64,000 bases of DNA from a virus. Below are positions 8,932 through 51,425 of the stretch, piece by piece. The first letter of the stretch is position 1, and every line of letters begins with the position of its first letter. The position numbers were made by a program, and so were the translations under genes. Location of the stretch: the IMG/VR virus record IMGVR_UViG_3300009506_000014, positions 13,156 to 77,155 of that record. One strand, 5' to 3'. The notes below the pieces were generated by a model, which ran no database searches, was not told the origin of the DNA, and saw nothing but the letters and a program-made list of their open reading frames with translations.

Positions 8932-9210
8932 TTACTGCTCCTTACTTTCTTCCCATTTTTCCCATTCATCTTCAAAGTCACTTTTTCTTTTTTCATACTT
9001 CTTTTTTTGTTGTCTTTCTTTTTTGAGAATGACTTCATATTTCTTTTGTGCCTCTTCAATAGAGTCACAACCAAATTTCTCCTTCAAGGTAGTTTCAACT
9101 TGTGACATAGCTGCTTCGGCTTTGTCGGCAATGCGTGTCATCTTCTGAGCTTTCTTTTTTAGCTCTGCAAACTCTTCTATGTCTCTATTTCTCTTCTTTG
9201 TTTTTGTCAT
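8932..9210 (-). CDS. small coiled-coil protein
   Basis: 92-aa charged helical ORF in the operon. Confidence 0.6.
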   Translation of the reverse strand: MTKTKKRNRDIEEFAELKKKAQKMTRIADKAEAAMSQVETTLKEKFGCDSIEEAQKKYEVILKKERQQKKKYEKRKSDFEDEWEKWEESKEQ

Positions 9211-9352
9211 TGTCTATGCTCTCTTTGAATCCTTTTCTGAATTCCTTTATCGTTTTGGTTGTCCCACTTATTACTTTCGGAAGCTGTCTCCCAAAGACCA
9301 AAATACCGATTAAGCAAATCACTGCTATTTCAGCAAAACCAAAATTAAACAT
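9185..9352 (-). CDS. tatA: TatA/TatE-like twin-arginine translocase subunit (55 aa, not in the ORF track)
   Basis: MFNFGFAEIAVICLIGILVFGRQLPKVISGTTKTIKEFRKGFKESIDNDKNKEEK: polar E8, TM helix, FG hinge, LP, amphipathic helix with EFRKG; AAGGA RBS. Confidence 0.75.
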   Translation of the reverse strand: MFNFGFAEIAVICLIGILVFGRQLPKVISGTTKTIKEFRKGFKESIDNDKNKEEK

Positions 9353-10319
9353 TGTCACGTTCCTTTTCTGCTGCTTTGAATAAAAGCTCTCTTGTCCTTT
9401 TGTTTACTTTTACGTTTTTCTTTCTCAGATAATTTTTAAGAATCAATTCAAAGTCAATGTCCTGACCTTCCATACTTTTTAATTCTTTGCTTAGCTCTGA
9501 AATGTCAATCTCAGGATTCTCTTCAAGTGCCTTTGCTGTTTTCGTTTCAAGATAGACATCGTTCTTTATGGGTATCCTGATAACTGTCACTTCTCCGTCC
9601 GGGTGAAGTAATCCCACTTGTGGTCTGTAGTCTAAATCGGTTGTTCTTCTTCTCATCAATGTCCCACAATTGAACACAGTCGTGTCTCCAATCTTGGTAA
9701 GAAAGCCCTTGTGATTGTCTCCAAACACCATGACATCATAACCAAAGAGCTTATTGTCAATCATATTCTTTTTTGCTATGTAGTTTATGTTTGTTTTCCT
9801 TGCTGCTGTTTTGTATCTGTGTTTACCATGCCAGATGAATTGGTGACATAAAGCAATATTTGCTGGCCCAACCGTTGTCTCTTTTTTTGGTGGTTTTATT
9901 TTTTCACCATAAGCAAAGGAGTATAAATTAAAATGTTTAAGCAGTTGTGTATCTACTACACATTCCAAATCTTTGATAGTGTCACTCAAGACAAGTGAAT
10001 AGTATGCACTCTTTTCCATTTCATCAGGGTTATGATTTGGTGTATCATGCTGTCCCGGTATGCAATACATATCAACTGGCAGATATGTCATTGCAAAGTT
10101 TATTAGCTCCGGGCAGCAATTCCAGTAGTTAAGTATGTCACCAGCAGCCAGTATAGGGCATTTGAAAAATCTTCTTGTCTCTTGCAGCCAGTAAAGAACC
10201 TGTCTCATTGCATTATACCAATCTGGCTCTTTACTTCTCAATACAGGTGGATTATGTGACAGGTGTATATCGGCACACAGTATTGCATCTACTTTTTTAT
10301 TGACATGTGTTCTTTTCAT
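9345..10319 (-). CDS. SbcD/Mre11-like metallophosphoesterase nuclease
   Basis: ADIH, AGDI, PGQHD, FGDNH motifs. Confidence 0.9.
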   Translation of the reverse strand: MKRTHVNKKVDAILCADIHLSHNPPVLRSKEPDWYNAMRQVLYWLQETRRFFKCPILAAGDILNYWNCCPELINFAMTYLPVDMYCIPGQHDTPNHNPDEMEKSAYYSLVLSDTIKDLECVVDTQLLKHFNLYSFAYGEKIKPPKKETTVGPANIALCHQFIWHGKHRYKTAARKTNINYIAKKNMIDNKLFGYDVMVFGDNHKGFLTKIGDTTVFNCGTLMRRRTTDLDYRPQVGLLHPDGEVTVIRIPIKNDVYLETKTAKALEENPEIDISELSKELKSMEGQDIDFELILKNYLRKKNVKVNKRTRELLFKAAEKERDNV

Positions 10320-11337
10320 TTTGTCTTTTTCCGCATAAGGGACATTTCTTGCCTATTGCTTTTCTCAATTGCTTCTCAATCCTCTCGGCTCTTTGTCTGT
10401 GCTTGGTTATTTTCCATAAATATTCCCGGTGTAACTTAATGAGTCTTTCAAGCTCTGTTCTTTTGTTCCTCAGCCTATCATACGTGACAAAGTCTTTCTC
10501 AATATCTGAAATGTCCGGGGGTTTATTATTTATGATTCTCCTGAGTCCCTCGGACTTTTTTATGAGATTTTCAAGCTCTTGCCGGGATTCCCTCAAATCA
10601 AGCCACATCTGCCCACTGAGTACCGCCAAACGAGCTATTTCCCGGCCCGTACAGGCCCGAACGCTGAGCTTTTGGTATGATATAGCCTTATTTATAGTCT
10701 CTTTGATTCTACGGCATTTTAAGGCCGTTCTCTGAAAACGCTTTTCAAGTGTTTCAAGTGTTGACAATTTAACATCAAACTCGTGAACAAACTGTCCGAG
10801 TTCCAATTGCTCTGTAAAATCTTGAATATCTTTTTCTACCTCAGCTTTTTTGTCACGTTCCTTTCTGAGCCATGTATCAAGGTTGCTGAGTGTGTTGTCC
10901 ATGACTTCAAGATTAATAAGCTTGTTTAACTCCCGGCTTGCCATCCCCGGCGTTTTGCAAAACCAAAAAGGATTGTCATGTTGAAACTGGAAGTTTATGT
11001 CATCTACGTTGAAGAGTTTCTTTATCTTGTCCGGGACTTTCTCTTTCTTGAAAGCCTTATAGGGTTTCCCCTTATCAAGTATATAGATGTTTTTGCTCTC
11101 ACCCTTTTTCCGCATGACAGAATGACCATCTAAGAACAAACGCATCTGAGCCAGCTTCGATTTGTTATGAACAAATTCTTCAAGTGTCACAGTTGGATTT
11201 GTCATCAACCAATAGAGTGCCCAAATAAAAGTGCTTTTACCTTTGTCGGTAGAACCTACAATAGTAGTCACCCTATCAAAATCCACATCAAGGCTTTTGA
11301 ATTTTAGAATACCTCTGATTTGTGCTTTTGTCAACAT
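10297..11337 (-). CDS. SbcC/Rad50 N-terminal half ending in the zinc hook
   Basis: Walker A GSTDKGKST, Q-loop, coiled coil, C-terminal CPLCG. Confidence 0.85.
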   Translation of the reverse strand: MLTKAQIRGILKFKSLDVDFDRVTTIVGSTDKGKSTFIWALYWLMTNPTVTLEEFVHNKSKLAQMRLFLDGHSVMRKKGESKNIYILDKGKPYKAFKKEKVPDKIKKLFNVDDINFQFQHDNPFWFCKTPGMASRELNKLINLEVMDNTLSNLDTWLRKERDKKAEVEKDIQDFTEQLELGQFVHEFDVKLSTLETLEKRFQRTALKCRRIKETINKAISYQKLSVRACTGREIARLAVLSGQMWLDLRESRQELENLIKKSEGLRRIINNKPPDISDIEKDFVTYDRLRNKRTELERLIKLHREYLWKITKHRQRAERIEKQLRKAIGKKCPLCGKRQNEKNTCQ

Positions 11338-28823: not shown

Positions 28824-29115
28824 TTTTAATCCTTGTCAATGTATGTATTCTGCTTTCACTATTCTCTCTCTCTTCTATAAGCAAGGCAAGTATTAATTTC
28901 AAGGTTTCTATGTCCCCGGATGCCGATGCTTGAAATGTACTTTGTTTGACATTTATAACAACTGAGCAGCAATCCTCTATAAGAGCATAGGCGTCCTCTT
29001 TTAAGGGACAGCGTCTTGCCAAACCTAAAGTCTGGTTTTTCATTATGTTTATTTCATTCAGTATGTCTCTTACTAATTCATTAATCAATTTTTTCTGTTT
29101 ATCATTCGAGTACAT
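28792..29115 (-). CDS. hypothetical protein
   Basis: overlapping ORF in the operon. Confidence 0.5.
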   Translation of the reverse strand: MYSNDKQKKLINELVRDILNEINIMKNQTLGLARRCPLKEDAYALIEDCCSVVINVKQSTFQASASGDIETLKLILALLIEERENSESRIHTLTRIKNEFQGTTNPN

Positions 29116-30101
29116 TTTGTTTCTCCTGTCACTTTTATTTTTTTTTCTATTCTCTTCTTGGTTATCTTAACCAAGTCACTTTGTTTTAAGGGTAGTTGTG
29201 TATCCTCTTCAGGAATGCCGATGAATTTGAGTACATCTTTTATCTTCAATGTCTCCATGCAGTATTTGTAGAGTTTTGGATGGGTGAATTTCATAAGGTC
29301 AAATCTATTAGGTCGATTTTCCAAGTGAATTCCAAAACAACAGAAAATACATCCAGTATGATTGACACCTGTGTCATATACTGAACAATAAGGGACATTA
29401 AATTCTTTTATATAATCAAGAATATCTTCACTTCTCCAAAAGGCTAATGGTGTGCATCTTGGTATGGGTAGGTGACTTTGATAACATCCATTCTCCATAT
29501 ATTCTTTCATTCTTTTATTGCTGTCACAAGCCATAGTTCCTACATAACTTGCTCGTTTTGTTTCTTTATAGAATTTTAGAACAGGAGCAATCTTAAGAAC
29601 GTGACAGCACCGCTCTGAAATTTTGAACGGAGAATCAATCATATATCTCCATTTTTCGGGAAGCTTACCAAACGAACCACGTTCGTCACCATATAGTGTT
29701 TTGTTCCTGTGTTTTTCGCTTGTGCCGGGACTCTTTAAGCGTCTGAGAAGGCTCGCCACCATTTTGCTTATAACAGGGTAGCCATGTTTTTCAATAACTT
29801 GTTTGAATGACATCTTTGGACGAAGAGTAATTACATTATCAATAGTCTTTACAAACTTTGTTATTTCAGGATATTCTAAACCAGTGTTGACAAATACTGC
29901 TGGGACATCTGGAAATAATTCTCTCACAAGGTTTAGTAAAACAGTTGAATCCCTTCCACCTGAGAATGCAACATATACATTGCCATTATATTTTTTATAC
30001 CAATGTATAATACGATTGTGACTCATTTTGATTTTCAATTCCAATGGATAATTCTGACGCTGACGCAAAGTATCATTATTGACTTTCAATTCCTTAGCCA
30101 T
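29085..30101 (-). CDS. PAPS reductase-family (PP-loop) protein
   Basis: AFSGGRDS, NTGLEYPE, CCHVLK, TGCIFC. Confidence 0.85.
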   Translation of the reverse strand: MAKELKVNNDTLRQRQNYPLELKIKMSHNRIIHWYKKYNGNVYVAFSGGRDSTVLLNLVRELFPDVPAVFVNTGLEYPEITKFVKTIDNVITLRPKMSFKQVIEKHGYPVISKMVASLLRRLKSPGTSEKHRNKTLYGDERGSFGKLPEKWRYMIDSPFKISERCCHVLKIAPVLKFYKETKRASYVGTMACDSNKRMKEYMENGCYQSHLPIPRCTPLAFWRSEDILDYIKEFNVPYCSVYDTGVNHTGCIFCCFGIHLENRPNRFDLMKFTHPKLYKYCMETLKIKDVLKFIGIPEEDTQLPLKQSDLVKITKKRIEKKIKVTGETKCTRMINRKN

Positions 30102-35394: not shown

Positions 35395-36753
35395 TTATGC
35401 TGCTAATATGCTTGTGTTGTTTGCATCAAACATTACTGTTTTACCAAACGGTAATTTTCTATCTTTCGTTTTGGTCACCCAAAGAACCGGATAGCTCGGT
35501 TCGCGTTCCGGGAATGTTCCGTATGTATCGGTGAAGTATATTAGACAGGCCGGGGTGAGTCCCCTCTTCTGTACTCTTTCAAATACAGGTCTGAAATCTG
35601 TCCCACCATATATTTGTTTTGGATTCGGTTTGATGGGAAGGTCTGAGGTTCTGTATGTCTCTTCGTTTGTTATTTGGTCGTCACAATATATCAGTTGTAC
35701 CGTTGTATCGTAGGCTGATAATATCTGTGACACTTCCTTCAGGAATATGGCAAGTTGAATCTCATCAATACTTCCCGAAGTATCTACTGCAATGACTATC
35801 TCAGGTAACTCATCCGAACAAATACCGGGGACATATAAACCCCTTTGTAAATAGTTTCGGTCAGGGACTTCCCACATATAGTCATTACGTGCATTCGTTT
35901 CTACGAAGTCCCTCAGTATCACATACCAAGGCAAAGGTGGATTTTGAATCTCTTCAACAGCCCGGTCTAAACTTGGGAATGCTTGACCTTTTTTCTGAGC
36001 AGCTTTATAAGCCATCGTGACAGCTTGCTGCCATTGAGCAAGCTGCTCTTTTAGGTCACTCTCATCAAGGATGTCAGCATCTTCAACACCACCACAACCA
36101 CCGGGGTCGGGACAGGTATTGGTATCATCATCACACATGCCGGAATCGGAGTCACCATCTTGCTCGTCTTGGTCTTCATCTTCATCTTCAGGTTCTCCGT
36201 CACCTTCTTCTTGTTCTTCTTCGTCTTCTTGTTCTTCAGGTTCTCCGTTATCCTGACCGCTGCCGGACTGTGACTCGTCTGAGCTTTCCTGCTCTTCTTG
36301 TTCTTGTTCTTTTTGCTCTTGCTCTTCCTGTTGTTTGCGTTCCAAGTCACTGTATATCTCTTCTGCTGTCATTCCTCGGTACATTGAATCATACAAACAA
36401 CCTTCAATGAGCTTGAAGCCAGCGTCACTGAGTATCGGATTAATGGCATAATCGGTAGCCATATTCCAGAGATATGTATCCCGGCCATTCCTTCTCAGGT
36501 GAGTCCCCATAGCACAGTGCATTACTTCATGGGCAAGAACAAACTGCACCCTATCATCATCAAGTGACTCAATGAATCTCGGATTGTATTTAATACGCTT
36601 GCCATTAACGCAAGCTGTTTCGATTGAGACATCTTCGAGAAGTTCTAATCTCATGGCAAGATGTCCCCAAAAGCAATGGTCGAGAACAAGTCCCAACCTT
36701 TGCTGAATAATTCTCAACATCTGTTTGGTTTGTTTTTGTGTTGTAGGTGACAT
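35395..36753 (-). CDS. HExxH metallopeptidase-like plus VWA domain protein (DUF2201-type)
   Basis: LAHEVMH, acidic linker, VDTSGS, GGTDF, YFTD; start MSPTT. Confidence 0.85.
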   Translation of the reverse strand: MSPTTQKQTKQMLRIIQQRLGLVLDHCFWGHLAMRLELLEDVSIETACVNGKRIKYNPRFIESLDDDRVQFVLAHEVMHCAMGTHLRRNGRDTYLWNMATDYAINPILSDAGFKLIEGCLYDSMYRGMTAEEIYSDLERKQQEEQEQKEQEQEEQESSDESQSGSGQDNGEPEEQEDEEEQEEGDGEPEDEDEDQDEQDGDSDSGMCDDDTNTCPDPGGCGGVEDADILDESDLKEQLAQWQQAVTMAYKAAQKKGQAFPSLDRAVEEIQNPPLPWYVILRDFVETNARNDYMWEVPDRNYLQRGLYVPGICSDELPEIVIAVDTSGSIDEIQLAIFLKEVSQILSAYDTTVQLIYCDDQITNEETYRTSDLPIKPNPKQIYGGTDFRPVFERVQKRGLTPACLIYFTDTYGTFPEREPSYPVLWVTKTKDRKLPFGKTVMFDANNTSILAA

Positions 36754-36767
36754 TTTATTTCTCCTTT

Positions 36768-37814
36768 TTATGCAGCACCCTTGAAGAGCATTTTCGGGTG
36801 GTCGGTGACCCACTTGATGTAGGCTTTGGTTTCTCTTACTTTGGGACAGGCAGTGTCAATACCTGCAACGAAAACTGCTGCGAAGTCAATCTCCATACGC
36901 TCAAGGTACTTGAAGATATTCTCGGCGTTTGCTTTGGTTGCTTTGCTGAGCAGAGTTGTGACTATTGCCCACTTTGCATCGGGGCTGCTTGGGACAGGTT
37001 CTTTAGTCGGGTTCTTCAGGATGTTTTCAAGATTTGGCAGTGACCTGTAAACTTTAAGGAAGCCACAGAATGCTACGGCTGCTGCGTGACCTACTGCACC
37101 TTCTATCACTGAGAATTTATCAACGCCAAGTTTCAACCAGTCACTTACTGCTTCCCATTGCCTTGGTGACGGATGGTTTACAATATCCATTGTCCCTTCC
37201 TCAGTGGCAAGTAGTTCAGGCATCCAGTTTATGAAGCTGATAACTTCCATTGCAATGTCATGCTCATAAGCCCATACTACCCAATCCTCTTTTTTAACGG
37301 CAAGCTCAATAATCGTTTTGAACCGTGACTTCACTGGCTCAATCATCCCGGAGACATGAGCAAAGTCTTGTTTGCGATTCGTACAAGCAATGAACACTAC
37401 ATGGGGACTGATGTTTTTGCCGTTGCTTCTTATCAACTGCATAAGTGACGCTTGGGTTGCTGGCGGAGCTTGGCCCATGTCATCAATAAAGTATATGGTA
37501 AGCTTCTTTGCATCCTGAGCAGCTTCGAGATTTCCGAAGGGGACAAATCTGGCTTTGACTTTGCCCTTTTCATTTATGATAGCCCCAAGTCCCTTGTAAT
37601 CAATTGGGCTATCGTGGACGGGTGTGGATATGATAATGTCACATTTCAGGGCTTTGCGTACAGCTAAAACGACATCTGTTTTACCAATGCCGGGCATCCC
37701 GGTAATCAGTACAGACATCTTGTTGGGGACAGCAATCATTAAAAGATTGAAAAGCTCTTGTGGGGACATTGTTGATGTTGTATCGGTACTTGAATTTGAA
37801 TAGTTAGGTGACAT
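36768..37814 (-). CDS. MoxR-like AAA+ ATPase
   Basis: GMPGIGKT, FIDD, PSPRQW; paired with the VWA gene. Confidence 0.85.
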   Translation of the reverse strand: MSPNYSNSSTDTTSTMSPQELFNLLMIAVPNKMSVLITGMPGIGKTDVVLAVRKALKCDIIISTPVHDSPIDYKGLGAIINEKGKVKARFVPFGNLEAAQDAKKLTIYFIDDMGQAPPATQASLMQLIRSNGKNISPHVVFIACTNRKQDFAHVSGMIEPVKSRFKTIIELAVKKEDWVVWAYEHDIAMEVISFINWMPELLATEEGTMDIVNHPSPRQWEAVSDWLKLGVDKFSVIEGAVGHAAAVAFCGFLKVYRSLPNLENILKNPTKEPVPSSPDAKWAIVTTLLSKATKANAENIFKYLERMEIDFAAVFVAGIDTACPKVRETKAYIKWVTDHPKMLFKGAA

Positions 37815-39537: not shown

Positions 39538-39636
39538 TTTGTTTCTCCTGAAAATTGGTGGTTGGTAATCTAATAAGGAACGCACACATGCACGCACGCA
39601 TTATGCACGCACGCACACGCGAGACGTGACATTTAA

Positions 39637-40380: not shown

Positions 40381-40411
40381 ACGTATCAGCATATATGGAG
40401 ATAGGCTGAAT

Positions 40412-41188
40412 ATGGCAAAAAAGAAATGGAGTGACAAGTTAGTAATCAAGGCGTATGAGTACGCATACGCGGGACTTCGCAACGGTCAAATCGCAAGGAC
40501 ATTTGGCATCAGTAAAAACCGTTTTGCCGATTGGAAAAAGCTTCATCCTCTTTTTGCTTATGCTCTGAAACGGGCAAGAAAAAAACGTGACAAGGAGAAC
40601 GGCGAGTCAATGAGTTTTCGTGACTATGTATATCAGCAACTTCCTGACAATATACAGAAAGTATGGGATGAAGTCACGGAGCTTGATGAAGCGGAATCCG
40701 GTCAAGCTGCCATTGAAGCTCTTTTGTCACAACACGGAAAACGAGTCAGACAAAATATATTTGTTCATGCTATGGTGTCATCAAATTTCTCGCTGAGCCA
40801 GTCACTTAAAAGGGCCAATATAAGTAAAGCAACTTTGGACTATTGGAAAAAGAATGAGCCTGAGTTTGCTGTCCTCATCGAAGAGCTAAACTGGCATAAA
40901 AAGAATTTCTTTGAAGACCACTTGGCGACATTGGTTGCTGGTGGTGATTCTGCCGCTACGATATTCGCTAACCGTTCTTTCAATGCAGACCGGGGCTATG
41001 GAGATAAGCAAAGAGTTGATGTCAATGTGAATGCACAGATTGAAACGTCAACACCATTATCGCTTGAAGAGCTTGACTTGCCCCCGGAGCTATTGAAACA
41101 GATTTTAGACCATATACGTCATAAAAAGATTATCGAATCCAAGGTAGTCACGGAAAAGAAAAAACTATTGGAAGCAGGAGCGGCATAA
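40412..41188 (+). CDS. terminase small subunit (HTH)
   Basis: N-terminal HTH, AATIF...DRGYG; upstream of TerL. Confidence 0.7.
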   Translation: MAKKKWSDKLVIKAYEYAYAGLRNGQIARTFGISKNRFADWKKLHPLFAYALKRARKKRDKENGESMSFRDYVYQQLPDNIQKVWDEVTELDEAESGQAAIEALLSQHGKRVRQNIFVHAMVSSNFSLSQSLKRANISKATLDYWKKNEPEFAVLIEELNWHKKNFFEDHLATLVAGGDSAATIFANRSFNADRGYGDKQRVDVNVNAQIETSTPLSLEELDLPPELLKQILDHIRHKKIIESKVVTEKKKLLEAGAA

Positions 41189-41205
41189 TTATAAGGAGTC
41201 ACGAA

Positions 41206-41478
41206 ATGTTCAGGACAATTAAAAGATGGCTCGGCATAAAACGGCCTGAGTATTATATCAGGATTGTAACTGCTATGGTCACGATTGAAGTCAAAGCAGA
41301 AAGTAAAAACGACTTGGATTATTTGGTCACGGAGCATCTGGACAAGCTGGTTCTAAAAGCAAAGGAAGTTGCTCAGGATGTCATTGCCGAACAAAAAAGC
41401 GTATGTGCAAAAGAAGTTAATAAAAGTATGATGTTGTCAACACCAATAAGAAGTGGAATTACTACGGGCAGAGCATGA
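41206..41478 (+). CDS. hypothetical protein
   Basis: AAGGAG RBS. Confidence 0.55.
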   Translation: MFRTIKRWLGIKRPEYYIRIVTAMVTIEVKAESKNDLDYLVTEHLDKLVLKAKEVAQDVIAEQKSVCAKEVNKSMMLSTPIRSGITTGRA

Positions 41479-43031
41479 AAGATAAAATGACACGTAGGGA
41501 TTTACTTAAAGCCGGGGCTATGGCTGCCATTGGAGTGGGTGTCTCGTCACTTTCAGAGGAAGATAAGGCTTTAAGCAGTAGTCTTTCCGTCACGGAGATA
41601 GATGCAATCCGAGCCTATACGAGACAGTCCTTTTACGGCTTCGTCCAAGAATTTTGGGATACTGTCATTCCTGAAAGTCCCGTATGGAATTGGCATATTG
41701 AATACTTGTGTAATGAATTGCAGTTTATTGCCGAACGTGTGTTTGAGGGACTTCCAAAGCTTTACGACCTTGTTATTAATATAAGTCCCGGTAGTACCAA
41801 GTCAACGATATGCAGCATCATGTTTCCTGCATGGGTGTGGACAAGAATGGCGTCAGCCCGAATTATTTGTGCATCGTATGCTTACAACCTTGCAATGGAT
41901 TTGTCTCGTAAGAATCGTGACGTTGTATTATCTGAAAGGTATCAAGCGTGTTTTCCTGAATTACAACTACGTGACGACCAATCGGCAAAGAGCTATTTCA
42001 TTAATCGGCTTGGCGGTTCAAGATATTCGGTTGGTGTTGGTGGCTCTGTGACAGGTCTGCACGCTCATTTTCTTTTTGTTGATGACCCATTAGACCCAAA
42101 TGAAGCTGTCTCTGAAGCGGATTTGAAAACAGCAAACCGATGGATGAAAGAGACACTACCCACGAGAAAAGTCAACAAGCTGATTACGCCTACAATTTTA
42201 ATCATGCAGAGACTCCATCAGGATGACCCTGCACAGAATATGATTGACAGGGCTGAAGAGGGTGGAGCTAAAGTAAGGCATATATGTCTCCCCGGCGAAT
42301 TGACAGAGGATGTCAAGCCAAAAGAGTTAAGAGCCAAATATGTTGACGGCTTGATGGATGTAAACAGGTTAGACCGACAAGTGCTGAAAGAAATGTATGT
42401 CGCCTTGGGTGAGTATGGATATGCAGGGCAGATATTACAACGTCCTGTCCCGTTAGGCGGTGGTATGTTCAAGACCGACAAAATCAGAATAGTCGATGCT
42501 CCCCCTTGTAAAGTCATAAGATGTATTCGATATTGGGACAAAGCAGCGTCACACAACAAAGGGGCTTTTACAGTTGGGGCTTTATTATGTGAAGATGAAA
42601 AGGGATGCACAGGGATACTTGACATACAAAGGGGACAATGGGGTTCATACGAAAGAGAGTCACATATCTTGTCTACTGCACAGTTGGACGGGAAAAAAAT
42701 TAGGATATGGATAGAGCAGGAGCCGGGCAGTGGTGGCAAGGACTCGGCAGAATATACAATAGGAAGTCTCCGGGGCTTCAGGGTGTTTGCTGAGAAAGTA
42801 GGGGCTTCAGAGGGCAGTAAGCAATTAAGAGCAGAACCGCTTGCGTCACAGGTCAATGCAGGAAATGTTTGGATGATACGAAGTGACTGGAATAAGGAAT
42901 ATATCAGTGAGTTGTCATTCTTTCCATTCTCAAAATACAAAGACCAAGTTGATGCGTCATCGGGTGCTTTTAACAAGTTGACAAAGAAACGAACAAGAAT
43001 TGGTGGATATGGTAGAAGAAAAGGAACATGA
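41475..43031 (+). CDS. terL: terminase large subunit with twin-arginine-like N-terminus
   Basis: INISPGSTKS, FVDDP, MQRLH, YWDKA, EQEPG, KDQVDA. Confidence 0.93.
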   Translation: MKDKMTRRDLLKAGAMAAIGVGVSSLSEEDKALSSSLSVTEIDAIRAYTRQSFYGFVQEFWDTVIPESPVWNWHIEYLCNELQFIAERVFEGLPKLYDLVINISPGSTKSTICSIMFPAWVWTRMASARIICASYAYNLAMDLSRKNRDVVLSERYQACFPELQLRDDQSAKSYFINRLGGSRYSVGVGGSVTGLHAHFLFVDDPLDPNEAVSEADLKTANRWMKETLPTRKVNKLITPTILIMQRLHQDDPAQNMIDRAEEGGAKVRHICLPGELTEDVKPKELRAKYVDGLMDVNRLDRQVLKEMYVALGEYGYAGQILQRPVPLGGGMFKTDKIRIVDAPPCKVIRCIRYWDKAASHNKGAFTVGALLCEDEKGCTGILDIQRGQWGSYERESHILSTAQLDGKKIRIWIEQEPGSGGKDSAEYTIGSLRGFRVFAEKVGASEGSKQLRAEPLASQVNAGNVWMIRSDWNKEYISELSFFPFSKYKDQVDASSGAFNKLTKKRTRIGGYGRRKGT

Positions 43032-43032
43032 C

Positions 43033-43233
43033 ATGGCAAAAACAATGGAGCAGAAAAATAATGTCCCGGACATTGGGGAAGTGCTTTACACCATTTTGGC
43101 AAATCAAGTGACAATTTTGGATTTATTAAAATGCTTCCATCGTCACGATATAAATGGTATGAGTGAAATAAGTCAGCAGTTAATAAAGATGGACAGAACA
43201 TCAAGAGACTTATTGAAAAGAATGCAATTATGA
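43033..43233 (+). CDS. hypothetical protein
   Basis: probable start MAKT after AAGGA. Confidence 0.45.
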   Translation: MAKTMEQKNNVPDIGEVLYTILANQVTILDLLKCFHRHDINGMSEISQQLIKMDRTSRDLLKRMQL

Positions 43234-43787
43234 AAAATGACAAGATAAAACGAAGAAGTTTTTTGCAAGGTCTTGCAGCCATTGTGACAACTGGGACTTT
43301 GGTAAAAAAGACCGAAGGCAAAGTGACAGAGCAGACGAAGACGAAAGAAATATTGCCGCCACCTTCATTTGCCCCAACTTACAGAGAAAATAAACCAGCG
43401 GAACACACAGAGCTTATGCCACCTATATGTATAAGTAGATGTGAGTTAAATGAGGGAGAGACGAGGTTGACATTCCGGGCTGGGGGACAGGAGTATTATA
43501 TCTATCCTGATAAGATAGAAATGACATATCATTCATATTCAAGACAAGTGACTCCAGATTATTGTGTTGTCAATTCTCCGGGATATATGGGGACAATGAT
43601 AGTAAAAGGTTGGTTTGGTGGTGGTAGTCCCGGTGTGTGTATTGAAGATATGATAGGGAGAAGTGGTGACCTTGTTATTCGCAAGCTGGAAGAAGGTCAC
43701 GAGTTTATTTGTAAAGCTTCGTTGGTTGAAGTTAGGATAGAAATTAGTCGATTAGTCACGGAGTTAATATTTTATATATATCAATAG
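43230..43787 (+). CDS. protein with Tat-type signal peptide
   Basis: KRRSFLQGLAAIVTTG. Confidence 0.65.
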   Translation: MKNDKIKRRSFLQGLAAIVTTGTLVKKTEGKVTEQTKTKEILPPPSFAPTYRENKPAEHTELMPPICISRCELNEGETRLTFRAGGQEYYIYPDKIEMTYHSYSRQVTPDYCVVNSPGYMGTMIVKGWFGGGSPGVCIEDMIGRSGDLVIRKLEEGHEFICKASLVEVRIEISRLVTELIFYIYQ

Positions 43788-43801
43788 GAAAGGACATTAG
43801 T

Positions 43802-44101
43802 ATGGAAAAGAAAATTGAACGGCGTGGATTTCTAAAGGGACTTACCGGGGTGATAGCTGGAATTACAGTCGGTGCAAAAGCCGCATCTGTCACACCAACA
43901 AAAGAGCCTACAATTAGAAGTCCCGAACCAGCAGAAGAGTTTGATGATGACATTTGGAATAAACTTGCAGAAGAGTTTGATGATGACAGTTGGATTAAAC
44001 TTGATGAAGCAATTATTAAACATGGACGTGAACTGCTACAAAGAGTGATGGCCGGAAAGAGTCACAGTCGTTTCAAATCAAGAATACCAAAAAGGAGATA
44101 A
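43802..44101 (+). CDS. protein with Tat-type signal peptide and 12-aa duplication
   Basis: ERRGFLKGLTGVIAGITVGAKA; AEEFDDDxWxKL twice. Confidence 0.65.
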   Translation: MEKKIERRGFLKGLTGVIAGITVGAKAASVTPTKEPTIRSPEPAEEFDDDIWNKLAEEFDDDSWIKLDEAIIKHGRELLQRVMAGKSHSRFKSRIPKRR

Positions 44102-44105
44102 ATAT

Positions 44106-44639
44106 ATGCTGACAAGAAGAAGTTTATTTAGAAGAGCCGGGGAAGCCATAGCCTATGTGACAGGCTGGTTATATATGACAAGCGGAGCAAAGCCGAAAAA
44201 GGAAAAAGCAGCAGAGCTTCCACAGTACAAAAGTTTTATCAGTAACAAAATTTATGTCCCACCATTTGAAGTGACTGATAAAGATATTGTGGATTGTTTG
44301 GTCTATGCCAATTATCAGTTTAATCAATGGCTTAATTGTGGATTTGACAAACGTCATGAAATGCCTGTTCTTTATATGTCACAAAGATTCTATGACAATA
44401 TGTGCCTATTGTACATTTCCAGATGGCCCAACCGGGCTATTTCAGATAGTCACGTTATGGAATGCAGACATGAAGGTAATTTATGGGGACTTCAACAGGT
44501 TTTCAATTTGGATATAGAGATTGTCCCGGATGGTGTGATTGATTGGGGTGATGGCCCGGAATATAGTTGTTTCCTTACTTGTATTTCCTGTGAAGGGACA
44601 GCACAATCAAGAAATATGAAATATAAGAAAATAGATTAG
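44106..44639 (+). CDS. protein with Tat-like N-terminus
   Basis: TRRSLFRRAGEAIAYV. Confidence 0.55.
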   Translation: MLTRRSLFRRAGEAIAYVTGWLYMTSGAKPKKEKAAELPQYKSFISNKIYVPPFEVTDKDIVDCLVYANYQFNQWLNCGFDKRHEMPVLYMSQRFYDNMCLLYISRWPNRAISDSHVMECRHEGNLWGLQQVFNLDIEIVPDGVIDWGDGPEYSCFLTCISCEGTAQSRNMKYKKID

Positions 44640-44649
44640 GAGTCACGAT

Positions 44650-46254
44650 ATGGCAAAAAAGAAGAAAAAGGGTAAAGTCACGGCTAATACGGATGCCGAA
44701 GTTACTGTCATTAAGCCAGAGGATGTAGTAGCCAACAGTGTCCCGGCTGAAGTGCTTCAGGCAAGAGAAAGACGTATAGCATTCAATCAGATGATGGCAA
44801 TGCAGTTGGCAGGAGTTACTGGCAATACGGCATTGATGAGCAGACAAGCTTTACTGAGTGCATTGAATACAGAACGTGACTATAACTTCGAGTGCGGATA
44901 TCCTGACGTATTAATGACAAAGCATTATACGGAAATGTTTGGGCGTGAAGGTATAGGCAAACGAGTTGTCACGGTTTATCCCGAAGAGTGCTGGTCACAA
45001 CATCCTGAAATCAACGAGAATGAAGATGAAAGTGACGAGACAGAATTCGAGAAGGCAGTAAAAGACCTTGTCAAAGATTTGAGACTTTGGGAATATTTGG
45101 AACGAATTGACATCTTGAGCGGTGTCGGTCGTTTTGGTGTCCTTTTGCTCGGTATTGATGACGGGATGCCACTTGATAAGCCACTTCCCGGTGTCAATGA
45201 CATAACAGGTGAAATCACTCCGCAGGGTGAAAGAAAGCTCTTGTATCTCAGGCCGTTTGATGAGGGTTGTGTACGTGTTGACAGGAAGGTGATTGATACT
45301 ACGTCACCAAGGTTTGGGTATCCGATGATGTATGATATAACCTTCCGTGACTATGATACTGTTAGCGGTATTGTAGAGACACATCTGAAAGTTCACTGGT
45401 CACGAGTGATTCACATTGCGGATAACAAGGAAGTCTCTGAGATTTACGGTGTCCCGCGTATGAAGCCTGTGTATAACAGACTTGTTGACGTTCGGAAGCT
45501 TCTTGCTGGCTCAGGTGAAATGTTCTGGAAGGGTGGATTTCCCGGTTATGCAATGGAGATAAACCCGGACATTCAAGACCCTGAAATAGATGTTGACTCT
45601 GTGAAAGAAGAGTTTCGGAATTATTCTGAGGGACTTCAGAGATATCTGGCTATTGAGGGTGTGAGTGTCAAGAGCTTGCAACCACAGGTAGCAGACCCGG
45701 TTGGTCACTTTACCACACAGGTCAAGGCTATAGCAATGACAATCGGTGTCCCGTACAGAATCTTCATGGGTTCTGAGGAAGCCAAGCTTGCCAGTAGTGA
45801 GGATAAGTCAACATGGAATGAACGCAAGAAAAGACGGCGAGAGAATTATTTGTCACCTTGCGTTGTCCGGGCGACACTTGATAGATTGCAGCAAATCGGC
45901 GTATTAAAGGAAGCCGAATATGAAGTCAATTGGCCTGACCCGGAGACACCAAACGATGACGACATTGCCAGTGTTGCTCAAAAGGTGTCGGATGCCCTGA
46001 GCAAGTACACAGCAAACGATGTGGAGACAGTGATGCCACCACTGGAATTCTTCACTAAGGTTCTGAAGATGTCACAGGAAGAAGCTGAAGCGGTAGAGGA
46101 AGCCCGGCAGAAACATAATGAAGAGCTTGACCAAGAACGAGAGGATGACTTGGCACAAAGAGAGCAGGATGTCTCTATTCGTGAAGAGACATCACGTAAG
46201 AACGAGTTGAAAAACAAGATGCAAGATAACAGTTGGACTAAGGATGGGGAATGA
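44650..46254 (+). CDS. portal protein (DUF1073-like)
   Basis: GRFGVLLLG, VHWSRVIH, IGVPYRIFMG; between TerL and the head morphogenesis gene. Confidence 0.8.
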   Translation: MAKKKKKGKVTANTDAEVTVIKPEDVVANSVPAEVLQARERRIAFNQMMAMQLAGVTGNTALMSRQALLSALNTERDYNFECGYPDVLMTKHYTEMFGREGIGKRVVTVYPEECWSQHPEINENEDESDETEFEKAVKDLVKDLRLWEYLERIDILSGVGRFGVLLLGIDDGMPLDKPLPGVNDITGEITPQGERKLLYLRPFDEGCVRVDRKVIDTTSPRFGYPMMYDITFRDYDTVSGIVETHLKVHWSRVIHIADNKEVSEIYGVPRMKPVYNRLVDVRKLLAGSGEMFWKGGFPGYAMEINPDIQDPEIDVDSVKEEFRNYSEGLQRYLAIEGVSVKSLQPQVADPVGHFTTQVKAIAMTIGVPYRIFMGSEEAKLASSEDKSTWNERKKRRRENYLSPCVVRATLDRLQQIGVLKEAEYEVNWPDPETPNDDDIASVAQKVSDALSKYTANDVETVMPPLEFFTKVLKMSQEEAEAVEEARQKHNEELDQEREDDLAQREQDVSIREETSRKNELKNKMQDNSWTKDGE

Positions 46255-46257
46255 CAC

Positions 46258-47103
46258 ATGGCAAATTATGACCCGTCACGAACAGCAGGACTTCGCCGCA
46301 GGTTTGTAGGCCAGATGAACAAACGCTTCCAGAAAGTCAATCGGGAAATCAGGGAATTTCTTGTCAAGGATGATGCGTTTGGATTGACAGCCCCGGATAG
46401 TCCCTTGATTATCCAACAACAAGTCCCCTATCGTCAATACCAGTTCTTGACAAATCCGCAGAAAACGGCAGCATTCCGAAAGTGGCTACAGGATAGAATC
46501 AATGCCGGGATTCTAAGTGTTGACGTGAAGGGTAAGCCTTGGACAGCCGAATATATTGACTCTGCATACAGGAAGGGAATGACACGAGCATTTATTGACA
46601 CACTTCCCCCGGCTAAAGCTGGCTCTTATGATTTTTTCATGGGTAGTAAAAAAGAGTTTTTGCGTCAAGCATTTATGCAACCGGAAATGCTGAGTAAAAT
46701 TGAATTATTGTCAACACGTGCTTTTGAGAATCTTAAGGACATCACTACTTCTATGTCGGCACAATTAAACAGGATTCTTAGCGATGGATTGTCACATGGT
46801 CATTCCCCGGAGAAGATAAGCAGGGCAATGGCTAAACAGATAGGCAAGCTGTCACGGACAAGAGCAAGAGTATTGGCCCGTACTGAGATTATTAATGCTC
46901 ATGCTGAGGGACAGCTTGATGGATTTGAGAAATTAGGAATAAAGAAAACACAATTAAGAGCAGAGTGGTCAACGGCAGGGGATGACATTGTATGTCCTCA
47001 GTGTGGGGCTATGGAAGGTGAGACTTTCTCCATTGATAAGGCAAGGGGACTTATTCCTTTACATCCGAATTGTCGTTGTGCATGGATACCATATACAAAA
47101 TAA
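46258..47103 (+). CDS. minor head morphogenesis protein (SPP1 gp7/Mu gpF)
   Basis: RARVLARTE, WSTAGDD.VCPQC, PLHPNCRC. Confidence 0.9.
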   Translation: MANYDPSRTAGLRRRFVGQMNKRFQKVNREIREFLVKDDAFGLTAPDSPLIIQQQVPYRQYQFLTNPQKTAAFRKWLQDRINAGILSVDVKGKPWTAEYIDSAYRKGMTRAFIDTLPPAKAGSYDFFMGSKKEFLRQAFMQPEMLSKIELLSTRAFENLKDITTSMSAQLNRILSDGLSHGHSPEKISRAMAKQIGKLSRTRARVLARTEIINAHAEGQLDGFEKLGIKKTQLRAEWSTAGDDIVCPQCGAMEGETFSIDKARGLIPLHPNCRCAWIPYTK

Positions 47104-50369: not shown

Positions 50370-51425
50370 ATGGAACAAAGTTTTATACTCAATGGCATTG
50401 CCAACGGGACAGTCGCCCAAAAATTACTTGCGGTGAATGGTGACCCAAGAGCCTTGCGTCCATTTGTGGGCAGGGATGGGAGGTCACGCATCGACGTTAA
50501 TATCGCTGGTAAGGAAAGAACGATTGTCACCAATGCCACAGCCACGCTTCGCAAGGAAGATTGGATTCACCTTGACGAAATGATTGTCAAGGTAGCACGG
50601 GCAAGACTCAGGGCGGTTAGTGATATCGTGGGTGCTGGCTTGACATATAACATGCCGAATGGCATGGCTCATACGGTTCTGCAAACTGAGCGTATGGGTG
50701 ACATCAATGATGCTTCTATCAGCATGGATGGGCTGAGACAAGGCCCGGATGACAGGCCGGAATTCGATATTCAGAATTTACCGTTGCCTATCATCCATAA
50801 GGACTTTCAATTCAGCCTTCGGCAGATATTGGCGTCACGCAATGGCGGCTCTCCGCTTGACACGAGCATGGCTGAGCTTTGCGGTCGGAAGGTTGCTGAG
50901 CAAGCCGAAAAGCTCCTGTTAGGGACAGCAAGCTCCTATGCTTATGGTGGCGGTACGATTTACGGCATGACCAATTTTCCGTCACGTGTAACTCGTACAA
51001 TCACTGCTCCTACTGACAGTGCATGGACAGGGGCAACGCTGCTTGGTGAAGTCCTGCTTATGCGTCAAGACCTTGAGGATGCTTACCACTACGGCCCTTA
51101 TATGCTGTACTTCGCAAGTGCATGGAACGCATATTTGGACAATGACTATACAACGAATTATCCGATTACTGTCCGTGAGCGAATTCGCAAAATCGAAATG
51201 ATTAGTGACGTTCGCACATTGGATTATCTGACCGGGTATGATGTTGTACTTGTCCAGATGAGTTCTGATGTCATTCGAGAAGTCATTGGCATGAATGTGA
51301 CTACGTTGCAATGGGACACAGTTGGTGGTCTAATGCAGAATTTCAAAGTCATGGCAATATTAGTCCCGCAGTTACGAGCAGACATGAATGGTAATACCGG
51401 GATTAATCACGGCTCTACTTCGTAA
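50370..51425 (+). CDS. major capsid protein (HK97 fold, encapsulin/linocin-like)
   Basis: LPLPIIHKDF, YG.TNFP, YHYGPY.LY; synteny. Confidence 0.85.
   Translation: MEQSFILNGIANGTVAQKLLAVNGDPRALRPFVGRDGRSRIDVNIAGKERTIVTNATATLRKEDWIHLDEMIVKVARARLRAVSDIVGAGLTYNMPNGMAHTVLQTERMGDINDASISMDGLRQGPDDRPEFDIQNLPLPIIHKDFQFSLRQILASRNGGSPLDTSMAELCGRKVAEQAEKLLLGTASSYAYGGGTIYGMTNFPSRVTRTITAPTDSAWTGATLLGEVLLMRQDLEDAYHYGPYMLYFASAWNAYLDNDYTTNYPITVRERIRKIEMISDVRTLDYLTGYDVVLVQMSSDVIREVIGMNVTTLQWDTVGGLMQNFKVMAILVPQLRADMNGNTGINHGSTS

Follow-up and report, generated by a model that had tools for sequence, protein, structure and literature searches.

The DNA analysed here is a stretch of 64,000 nucleotides (hereafter the window) comprising bases 13156-77155 of a 77,155-bp IMG/VR virus record (IMGVR_UViG_3300009506_000014), and the direct terminal repeats on this record identify it as a complete phage genome. 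The genes from the small terminase subunit (TerS) to the portal protein form one tight, co-oriented late operon of packaging and head genes (Table 1), in which the large terminase subunit (TerL) and three further open reading frames (ORFs), here called ORF A, ORF B and ORF C, begin with twin-arginine (RR) motifs of the kind found in signal peptides of the twin-arginine translocation (Tat) pathway. The same phage encodes a protein of the TatA family.

Twin-arginine leaders in the packaging operon

The N-termini of the four proteins read MKDKMTRRDLLKAGAMAAIGVGVSS (TerL), MKNDKIKRRSFLQGLAAIV (ORF A), MEKKIERRGFLKGLTGVIAGITVGAKAAS (ORF B) and MLTRRSLFRRAGEAIAYV (ORF C), as had been quoted in a first-pass annotation of the window made from its letters. 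That annotation had placed three orphan genes between TerL and the portal gene, namely ORFs A, B and C, and did not mention a leaderless 66-aa ORF between TerL and ORF A. All four RR motifs (TRRDLLK, KRRSFLQ, ERRGFLK and TRRSLFR, respectively) fall inside residues 4-13, where they follow a short basic n-region and conform to the twin-arginine consensus S/T-R-R-x-F-L-K near the N-terminus. The hydrophobic regions (h-regions) behind the motifs contain uncharged stretches of 15 (TerL), 16 (ORF A), 13 (ORF B) and 15 (ORF C) residues, in keeping with the weakly hydrophobic region of about 12-20 residues of a Tat signal. They are rich in Gly, Ala and Thr, and short regions of this composition typify Tat signals, not Sec signals or membrane anchors. 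The h-region is followed by the textbook cleavage motif AKA/AS in ORF B, by KK and no obvious cleavage site in ORF A, and by SGA/K in ORF C, whose leader (TRRSLFRR) has a Glu inside the hydrophobic region; TerL has no AxA site, as had been remarked at first pass.

Two profile hidden Markov models (HMMs) of Tat signals were applied to the isolated leaders using their curated cut-offs (PF10518, 22.7 bits; TIGR01409, 16.7 bits). The TerL leader scored above both cut-offs (23.0 and 21.8 bits, respectively) and was the best-scoring Tat signal among the four, and the ORF B leader scored 18.3 bits with PF10518 and 19.1 bits with TIGR01409, the latter above the cut-off. When both HMMs were run at E<=10 against a six-frame translation of the whole 77-kb genome (154 kb of sequence), only the N-termini of TerL, ORF B and ORF A were matched, with genome-wide E-values of 1.5e-5 and 5.4e-5 for the TerL leader under the two models and of 7.9e-4 for ORF A. 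Scans of 1807 candidate starts by regular expression and hydrophobicity matched, at true gene starts, just these consecutive genes, with ORF C passing only a relaxed version of the regular-expression scan. The 10 near-complete related phages used as a control yielded a single TIGR01409 match altogether. For four tagged genes to fall within five consecutive ones, in a genome of about 98 genes, we estimate a chance probability of about 1e-4.

The clustering of Tat leaders in adjacent genes, as originally claimed and as recovered by both the HMM and the regular-expression scans, is real and far beyond chance, with a weak fourth member. Of the four leaders described at first pass as Tat signals, those of TerL, ORF A and ORF B were matched by the curated HMMs, with ORF A slightly under the cut-offs, and that of ORF C matched neither model. 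As judged from their sequences, the leaders of TerL, ORF A and ORF B are genuine signal peptides of the Tat type, and the leader of ORF C is weaker and not convincing as a Tat signal. It is extremely improbable that the motifs are products of chance or annotation, with RR arising from A/G-rich gene starts or with TerL starting downstream of it. The failure of ORF C to match a Tat HMM and the modest scores given by short signal HMMs would be in line with such an artefact, but no other match was found in the six-frame sequence and only one in the ten related genomes, the matches fall exactly at the N-termini of consecutive genes, and the same motif recurs on homologous TerLs (see below). With a column identity of 58%, the four leaders are not recent DNA duplicates of each other.

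Compared with bacterial Tat signal peptides (TorA, SufI and uncleaved signals of the Rieske type), the phage leaders share the S/T-R-R-x-F/L-L-K motif within the first 12 residues and a short basic n-region followed by 13-16 uncharged Gly/Ala/Thr-rich residues; the AKA cleavage motif is shared by ORF B, and basic residues after the hydrophobic region by ORF A. Unlike the bacterial signals, the phage leaders are found on late proteins, including a cofactor-free cytoplasmic packaging ATPase-nuclease, and TerL and ORF A are without an AxA site.

Table 1. Coordinates (in the window) and assignments of the genes and leaders discussed in the text.
Feature	Position	Strand	Remarks
SMC_N C-terminal half	8116-8697	-	92-aa ORF between this gene and the TatA-family gene
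TatA-family gene	9185-9358	-	57 aa from GTG, 55 aa from ATG at 9352; PF02416
SbcD-like phosphoesterase	9345-10319	-	
SbcC-like N-terminal ATPase	10297-11337	-	
TerS (small terminase)	40412-41188	+	phrog_309, E 2.5e-14; homolog directly precedes TerL in L032
90-aa ORF	41206-41478	+	No family match; strong Shine-Dalgarno site (taaggag) upstream; stop overlaps TerL start (ATGA)
TerL (large terminase)	41475-43031	+	phrog_38; single copy; N-terminal Tat-type leader
TerL leader, aa 1-27	41475-41555	+	TRRDLLK, then 15 uncharged Gly/Ala-rich residues; AxA site absent
66-aa ORF	43033-43233	+	Leaderless; no family match; stop overlaps ORF A start (ATGA)
ORF A, 185-aa orphan	43230-43787	+	KRRSFLQ leader, aa 1-25
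ORF B, 99 aa	43802-44101	+	ERRGFLK leader, aa 1-27; Shine-Dalgarno site aaagga
ORF C, 177-aa Cys-rich orphan	44106-44639	+	Weak RR leader; strong Shine-Dalgarno site aaaggag
Portal protein, end of cluster	44650-46254	+	PF06381, E 8.3e-26; phrog_146, E 4.7e-67

The terminase reading frame and its relatives

TerL lies between TerS (upstream) and the portal gene (downstream) and matched phrog_38 at an E-value of 7.7e-76 over residues 26-508. The homolog search returned 4394 matches, with about 60% identity to thousands of terminases, and the nearest TerL of an isolate was that of Croceibacter phage P2559Y (40%). A search of the whole genome using tblastn found no second TerL, and the leader sits on the only, full-length terminase of the phage.

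The ATG of TerL overlaps the stop codon of the upstream 90-aa ORF in the sequence ATGA, an arrangement that is the usual mark of translational coupling. The only in-frame starts 3' of the RR motif are Met16 and a GTG at codon 21, both of which are within the hydrophobic region, and neither of these was found to be preceded by a Shine-Dalgarno site. Given the ATGA overlap, the lack of a credible later start and the in-frame Tat match (E about 1e-5), the RR leader belongs to the TerL reading frame, which answers the concern raised in the first-pass annotation that TerL might start downstream of the motif. The hydrophobic region of TerL, comprising about 15 uncharged Gly/Ala-rich residues, is by its length and composition too weak for a stable membrane helix, and any tether of TerL would therefore need the Tat receptor (TatBC).

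The phage DNA was recovered in contigs from marine-sediment runs. Because the stretch encoding the TerL leader (41119-41718) was identical in contigs from a second, independent study, the leader is not an assembly artefact. Near-identical DNA over positions 40400-46300 came from marine-sediment runs in one study and, in the other, from a run labelled as soil metagenome, the sole difference among the run contigs in this interval being G>A at 44394. The contigs covering the region offered no variation on which a test for selection could have been based.

Leaderless TerLs of phrog_38 (homologs P0001-P0120) share with the window TerL a common core that begins at about residue 45 (55-83% identity). 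The P-loop, Walker B and the nuclease region at the C-terminus are all part of this core, ahead of which the window TerL has a Tat-type leader of about 25 residues. Among about 420 sampled members of the family, an RR leader was present on four TerLs, namely that of the window phage and those of P0060 (INRRELLKAGAVAGLGGL), L032 (ITRRKFIKKAVITIPTTSALA) and L125 (MNRREFIKTATVVTAIS). The comparison of TerL homologs suggested at first pass yielded similar leaders in at least three other lineages, with only these four TerLs of the sample carrying one. The four leader-bearing TerLs are not mutual nearest relatives and each has closer relatives that are leaderless; for example, the TerL of L125 is 89.6% identical to the leaderless TerL of L041, which starts with MKKTPKQIKDNE. 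When a leader-plus-core profile was searched against 1.84 billion representatives, the best 150 matches included no additional RR-tagged TerL, and viral_contigs contained no match to a degenerate DNA pattern designed on the TerL N-terminus specific to the clade.

The N-terminus of TerL is highly variable across the family. In a subgroup with proteins of about 615 aa (P0014, P0024, P0026, P0028 and others), the N-terminus is extended by a conserved stretch of about 130 aa that starts with M-x-ITL-x-I-x-CPDHL, which we take as a further sign of a swappable adaptor region at this end of the protein. The pattern among these relatives characterizes the TerL leader as a recurrent, labile N-terminal add-on that is easily gained or lost between close relatives. 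Since the TerLs of close relatives work without it, the leader would be accessory and not part of the motor.

The phage TatA-family gene

The phage tatA reported in the first-pass annotation is a real gene of the TatA family, as its product scored 30.1 bits against PF02416 (cut-off 21 bits). Scores were below the subfamily cut-offs of both TIGR01411 (37.1 versus 53.9 bits) and TIGR01410 (tatB; 27.1 versus 56.5 bits). By these scores the protein is a member of the TatA/TatE/TatB family in which TatA and TatB are not distinguishable; it is referred to as TatA below. Read from the sequence, its layout consists of a transmembrane helix with a Glu, an FG hinge, LP, and an amphipathic helix ending in KEFRKG. 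The N-terminal position of the transmembrane helix with its polar Glu, the FG hinge, the LP and the basic amphipathic helix are shared with E. coli TatA and TatE, B. subtilis TatAd and chloroplast Tha4. The protein differs from these in being encoded by a phage, in its length of 55-57 aa, in having no TatC partner in the genome and in its location in an SbcCD-like operon.

No match to PF00902 (TatC) was found in the complete phage genome, and the phage TatA would thus require the TatC of the host. There was no tatA in the 10 related near-complete phages, no match by tblastn in 50,697 GenBank phage records, no match to a PHROG family and no close relative in viral_contigs. The gene overlaps both of its neighbors inside the SbcCD-like nuclease operon (8116-11337, minus strand), which is an odd location for the gene of a membrane protein.

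A related complete phage of 62.7 kb (L063) encodes a 213-aa zinc protease of the metzincin/serralysin-like type with a Tat-type leader (MVTRRTFINLSAAALVG) at positions 4054-4695, about 1.3 kb upstream of its TerL gene, and the same protein is encoded in L024 (1846-2487). This protease, which accounts for the one TIGR01409 match among the related phages, is a plausible true secreted enzyme and would, on the evidence of its leader, show that the phage group uses Tat leaders for export. The L063 genome contains no tatA, and a phage tatA is accordingly not obligatory for a Tat-tagged phage protein. The co-occurrence of phage tatA and RR leaders proposed at first pass was seen in one genome, that of the window phage.

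Possible routes and roles of the tagged proteins

The reading that we favor, and that we give about even chances of being correct, is that the phage carries its own set of Tat cargo served by its own TatA, in which the envelope would be the destination of the small proteins and the Tat receptor that of TerL. Late in infection the TatBC receptor of the host would carry the small orphan proteins into or across the cytoplasmic membrane, and the extra TatA from the phage would add transport capacity. ORF B would lose its leader by cleavage after AKA, ORF A would perhaps remain anchored, and the small proteins could act on the envelope, for example by excluding rival phages or by preparing lysis. 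The leader would bring TerL to the Tat receptor as an accessory add-on, with the possible outcome that part of the TerL pool is held at the membrane or that its nuclease-bearing body is exported to the periplasm. A folded protein of 58 kDa is within the known range of Tat export. For TerL, the evidence fits tethering, export and blocking of Tat alike, which correspond to the functions offered at first pass.

Several observations weigh against a phage-borne Tat cargo set that includes TerL. The ORF A leader scored slightly below both curated cut-offs (17.4 bits with PF10518 and 15.2 bits with TIGR01409), the ORF C leader matched neither PF10518 nor TIGR01409, and a single genome underlies the link between tatA and the RR leaders. 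No function of a packaging ATPase beyond the cytoplasm is known, and TerL would be wasted if it were fully exported. The leader is rare on TerLs (about 1% of those sampled). The closest relative of the window TerL (P0001, 83%) is called from a start located where the leader would end, and a further relative (P0002, 66% identity) has kept the hydrophobic segment with RKK replacing RR, so that conservation of the RR motif is not strict. In L032 a conventional start, Met30, is located directly after the leader at the canonical start position, and the leaderless TerL may be the main product there, with two products being possible.

These relatives also bear on the possibility that the TerL leader is a passenger without a role of its own, picked up through recombination where the N-terminus is variable, and that the small ORFs are the only real Tat cargo; the leader would then be tolerated since most TerL acts before export or comes from a downstream start. 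The high variability of the TerL N-terminus in the family (including the extensions of about 130 aa), the leaderless relative with 90% identity, the degenerate leader of P0002, Met30 in L032 and the low frequency of leader-bearing TerLs are all as expected for a passenger. However, four independent gains of the same signal type on one family are hard to account for without selection, the window phage has no credible start after the RR motif, and its TerL leader is the best-scoring of the four. We regard a passenger leader as unlikely, though as an alternative that has to be taken seriously.

The leaders could also serve as a shared binding tag and not for transport, by recruiting a chaperone (SlyD, DnaK or a protein resembling the redox enzyme maturation proteins, for which the 90-aa ORF would be an example) or by bringing the tagged proteins to a common assembly site. 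Cytoplasmic proteins with vestigial Tat motifs that bind just a chaperone do exist, e.g., NarG with NarJ. Consistent with such a tag, all four tagged genes are within the packaging and head operon and a small ORF (90 aa) is translationally coupled to TerL; in addition, SlyD binds Tat signal peptides tightly and is exploited by phiX174 (PMC13673990). This explanation appears decidedly unlikely in view of the phage TatA gene, which points to real translocation, of the AKA cleavage site in ORF B, and of the 90-aa ORF itself, which matches no chaperone family and is absent from L032.

Even less probability is assigned to a role of the leaders as decoys for the TatBC receptor of the host. By occupying it late in infection they would stop the Tat export of host proteins (for example cell-wall amidases and respiratory enzymes), whereby the envelope would be weakened or resources would be redirected. 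Several strongly Tat-like leaders are produced from one late operon, TerL bound to DNA or to the procapsid would presumably be too large for transport, and tat mutants show envelope defects, all of which would suit a decoy. An extra TatA would nevertheless work against jamming by raising the capacity for transport, TerL is normally of low abundance, and ORF B resembles a normal cleavable cargo.

Tat signals and TatA are textbook biology. In the literature we found no description of a phage tatA, of a Tat-tagged terminase or of both combined, and a review of the Tat pathway from 2026 is silent on Tat components encoded by phages (PMC13673990). A phage with its own TatA and a Tat-type leader on its only terminase goes beyond that textbook picture. 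The wider proposal that the phage routes its sole packaging enzyme together with companion proteins to the Tat translocon of the host, reinforced by its own TatA, is tentative and, taken as a whole, we consider it unlikely. Conceivable purposes of routing TerL would be the coupling of packaging to the membrane, the destruction of incoming rival-phage DNA by a periplasmic terminase nuclease, or keeping TerL away from cytoplasmic immune sensors that recognize terminases. If this proposal were true, the repeated presence of the leader, in four lineages of TerL, would point to a second function of the terminase that is open to selection and has so far not been described. Should the leaders be functional, phages would be using a cargo and a pore subunit of their own to influence the export of folded proteins, and a core cytoplasmic motor would have a second place in the cell. 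Direct tests of the idea are feasible, given how short and portable the leaders are.

For the small tagged proteins, searches for relatives of ORF A and ORF C among 5.8 billion proteins returned none, and neither was assigned to a family. AlphaFold models computed from the single sequences were unusable (predicted local distance difference test [pLDDT] of 33 for ORF A and 32 for ORF C). The ESM Atlas neighbors of both proteins were all below 0.9 or below a TM of 0.45 and serve as leads only; they include families with Tat signals for ORF A and, for ORF C, capsid-like models that rest on a model with a pLDDT of 0.45. The best match of either protein within the phage proteome was no better than with shuffled queries, a comparison of the two led us to reject them as paralogs, and an origin of ORFs A-C as copies or pieces of the capsid, tail or portal proteins of the phage was not supported. 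The mature part of ORF B is acidic and contains a tandem EEFDDD-W-KL repeat and a basic tail. Its residues 62-82 are identical at 10 of 21 positions to residues 63-83, in the conserved N-terminal helix, of the major capsid protein (50370-51425) in a pairwise comparison (E 7e-4). Against the whole proteome this match is not significant, its score of 23.5 bits being reached by 6 of 60 shuffles.

Downstream of the portal gene follow genes for a Mu F-like head protein, a DUF2213 protein and an HK97/encapsulin-like capsid protein. With regard to the host, prophage matches resembling TerL were scattered across many phyla, and the strong AAGGAG ribosome sites that precede gene starts in the phage say just that the host uses Shine-Dalgarno sites. 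Upstream of the late operon, the divergent intergenic region between the early (minus strand) and late (plus strand) blocks contains a long GC-rich hairpin at 39580-39621 (18 pairs, GCGTGTGCGTGCGTGCA...), which resembles a terminator on the minus strand. The early region on the minus strand includes, at 29085-30101 and 35395-36813, genes for a protein with a PAPS-reductase domain and for a DUF2201 metallopeptidase/VWA protein adjoining a phrog_1297 ATPase.

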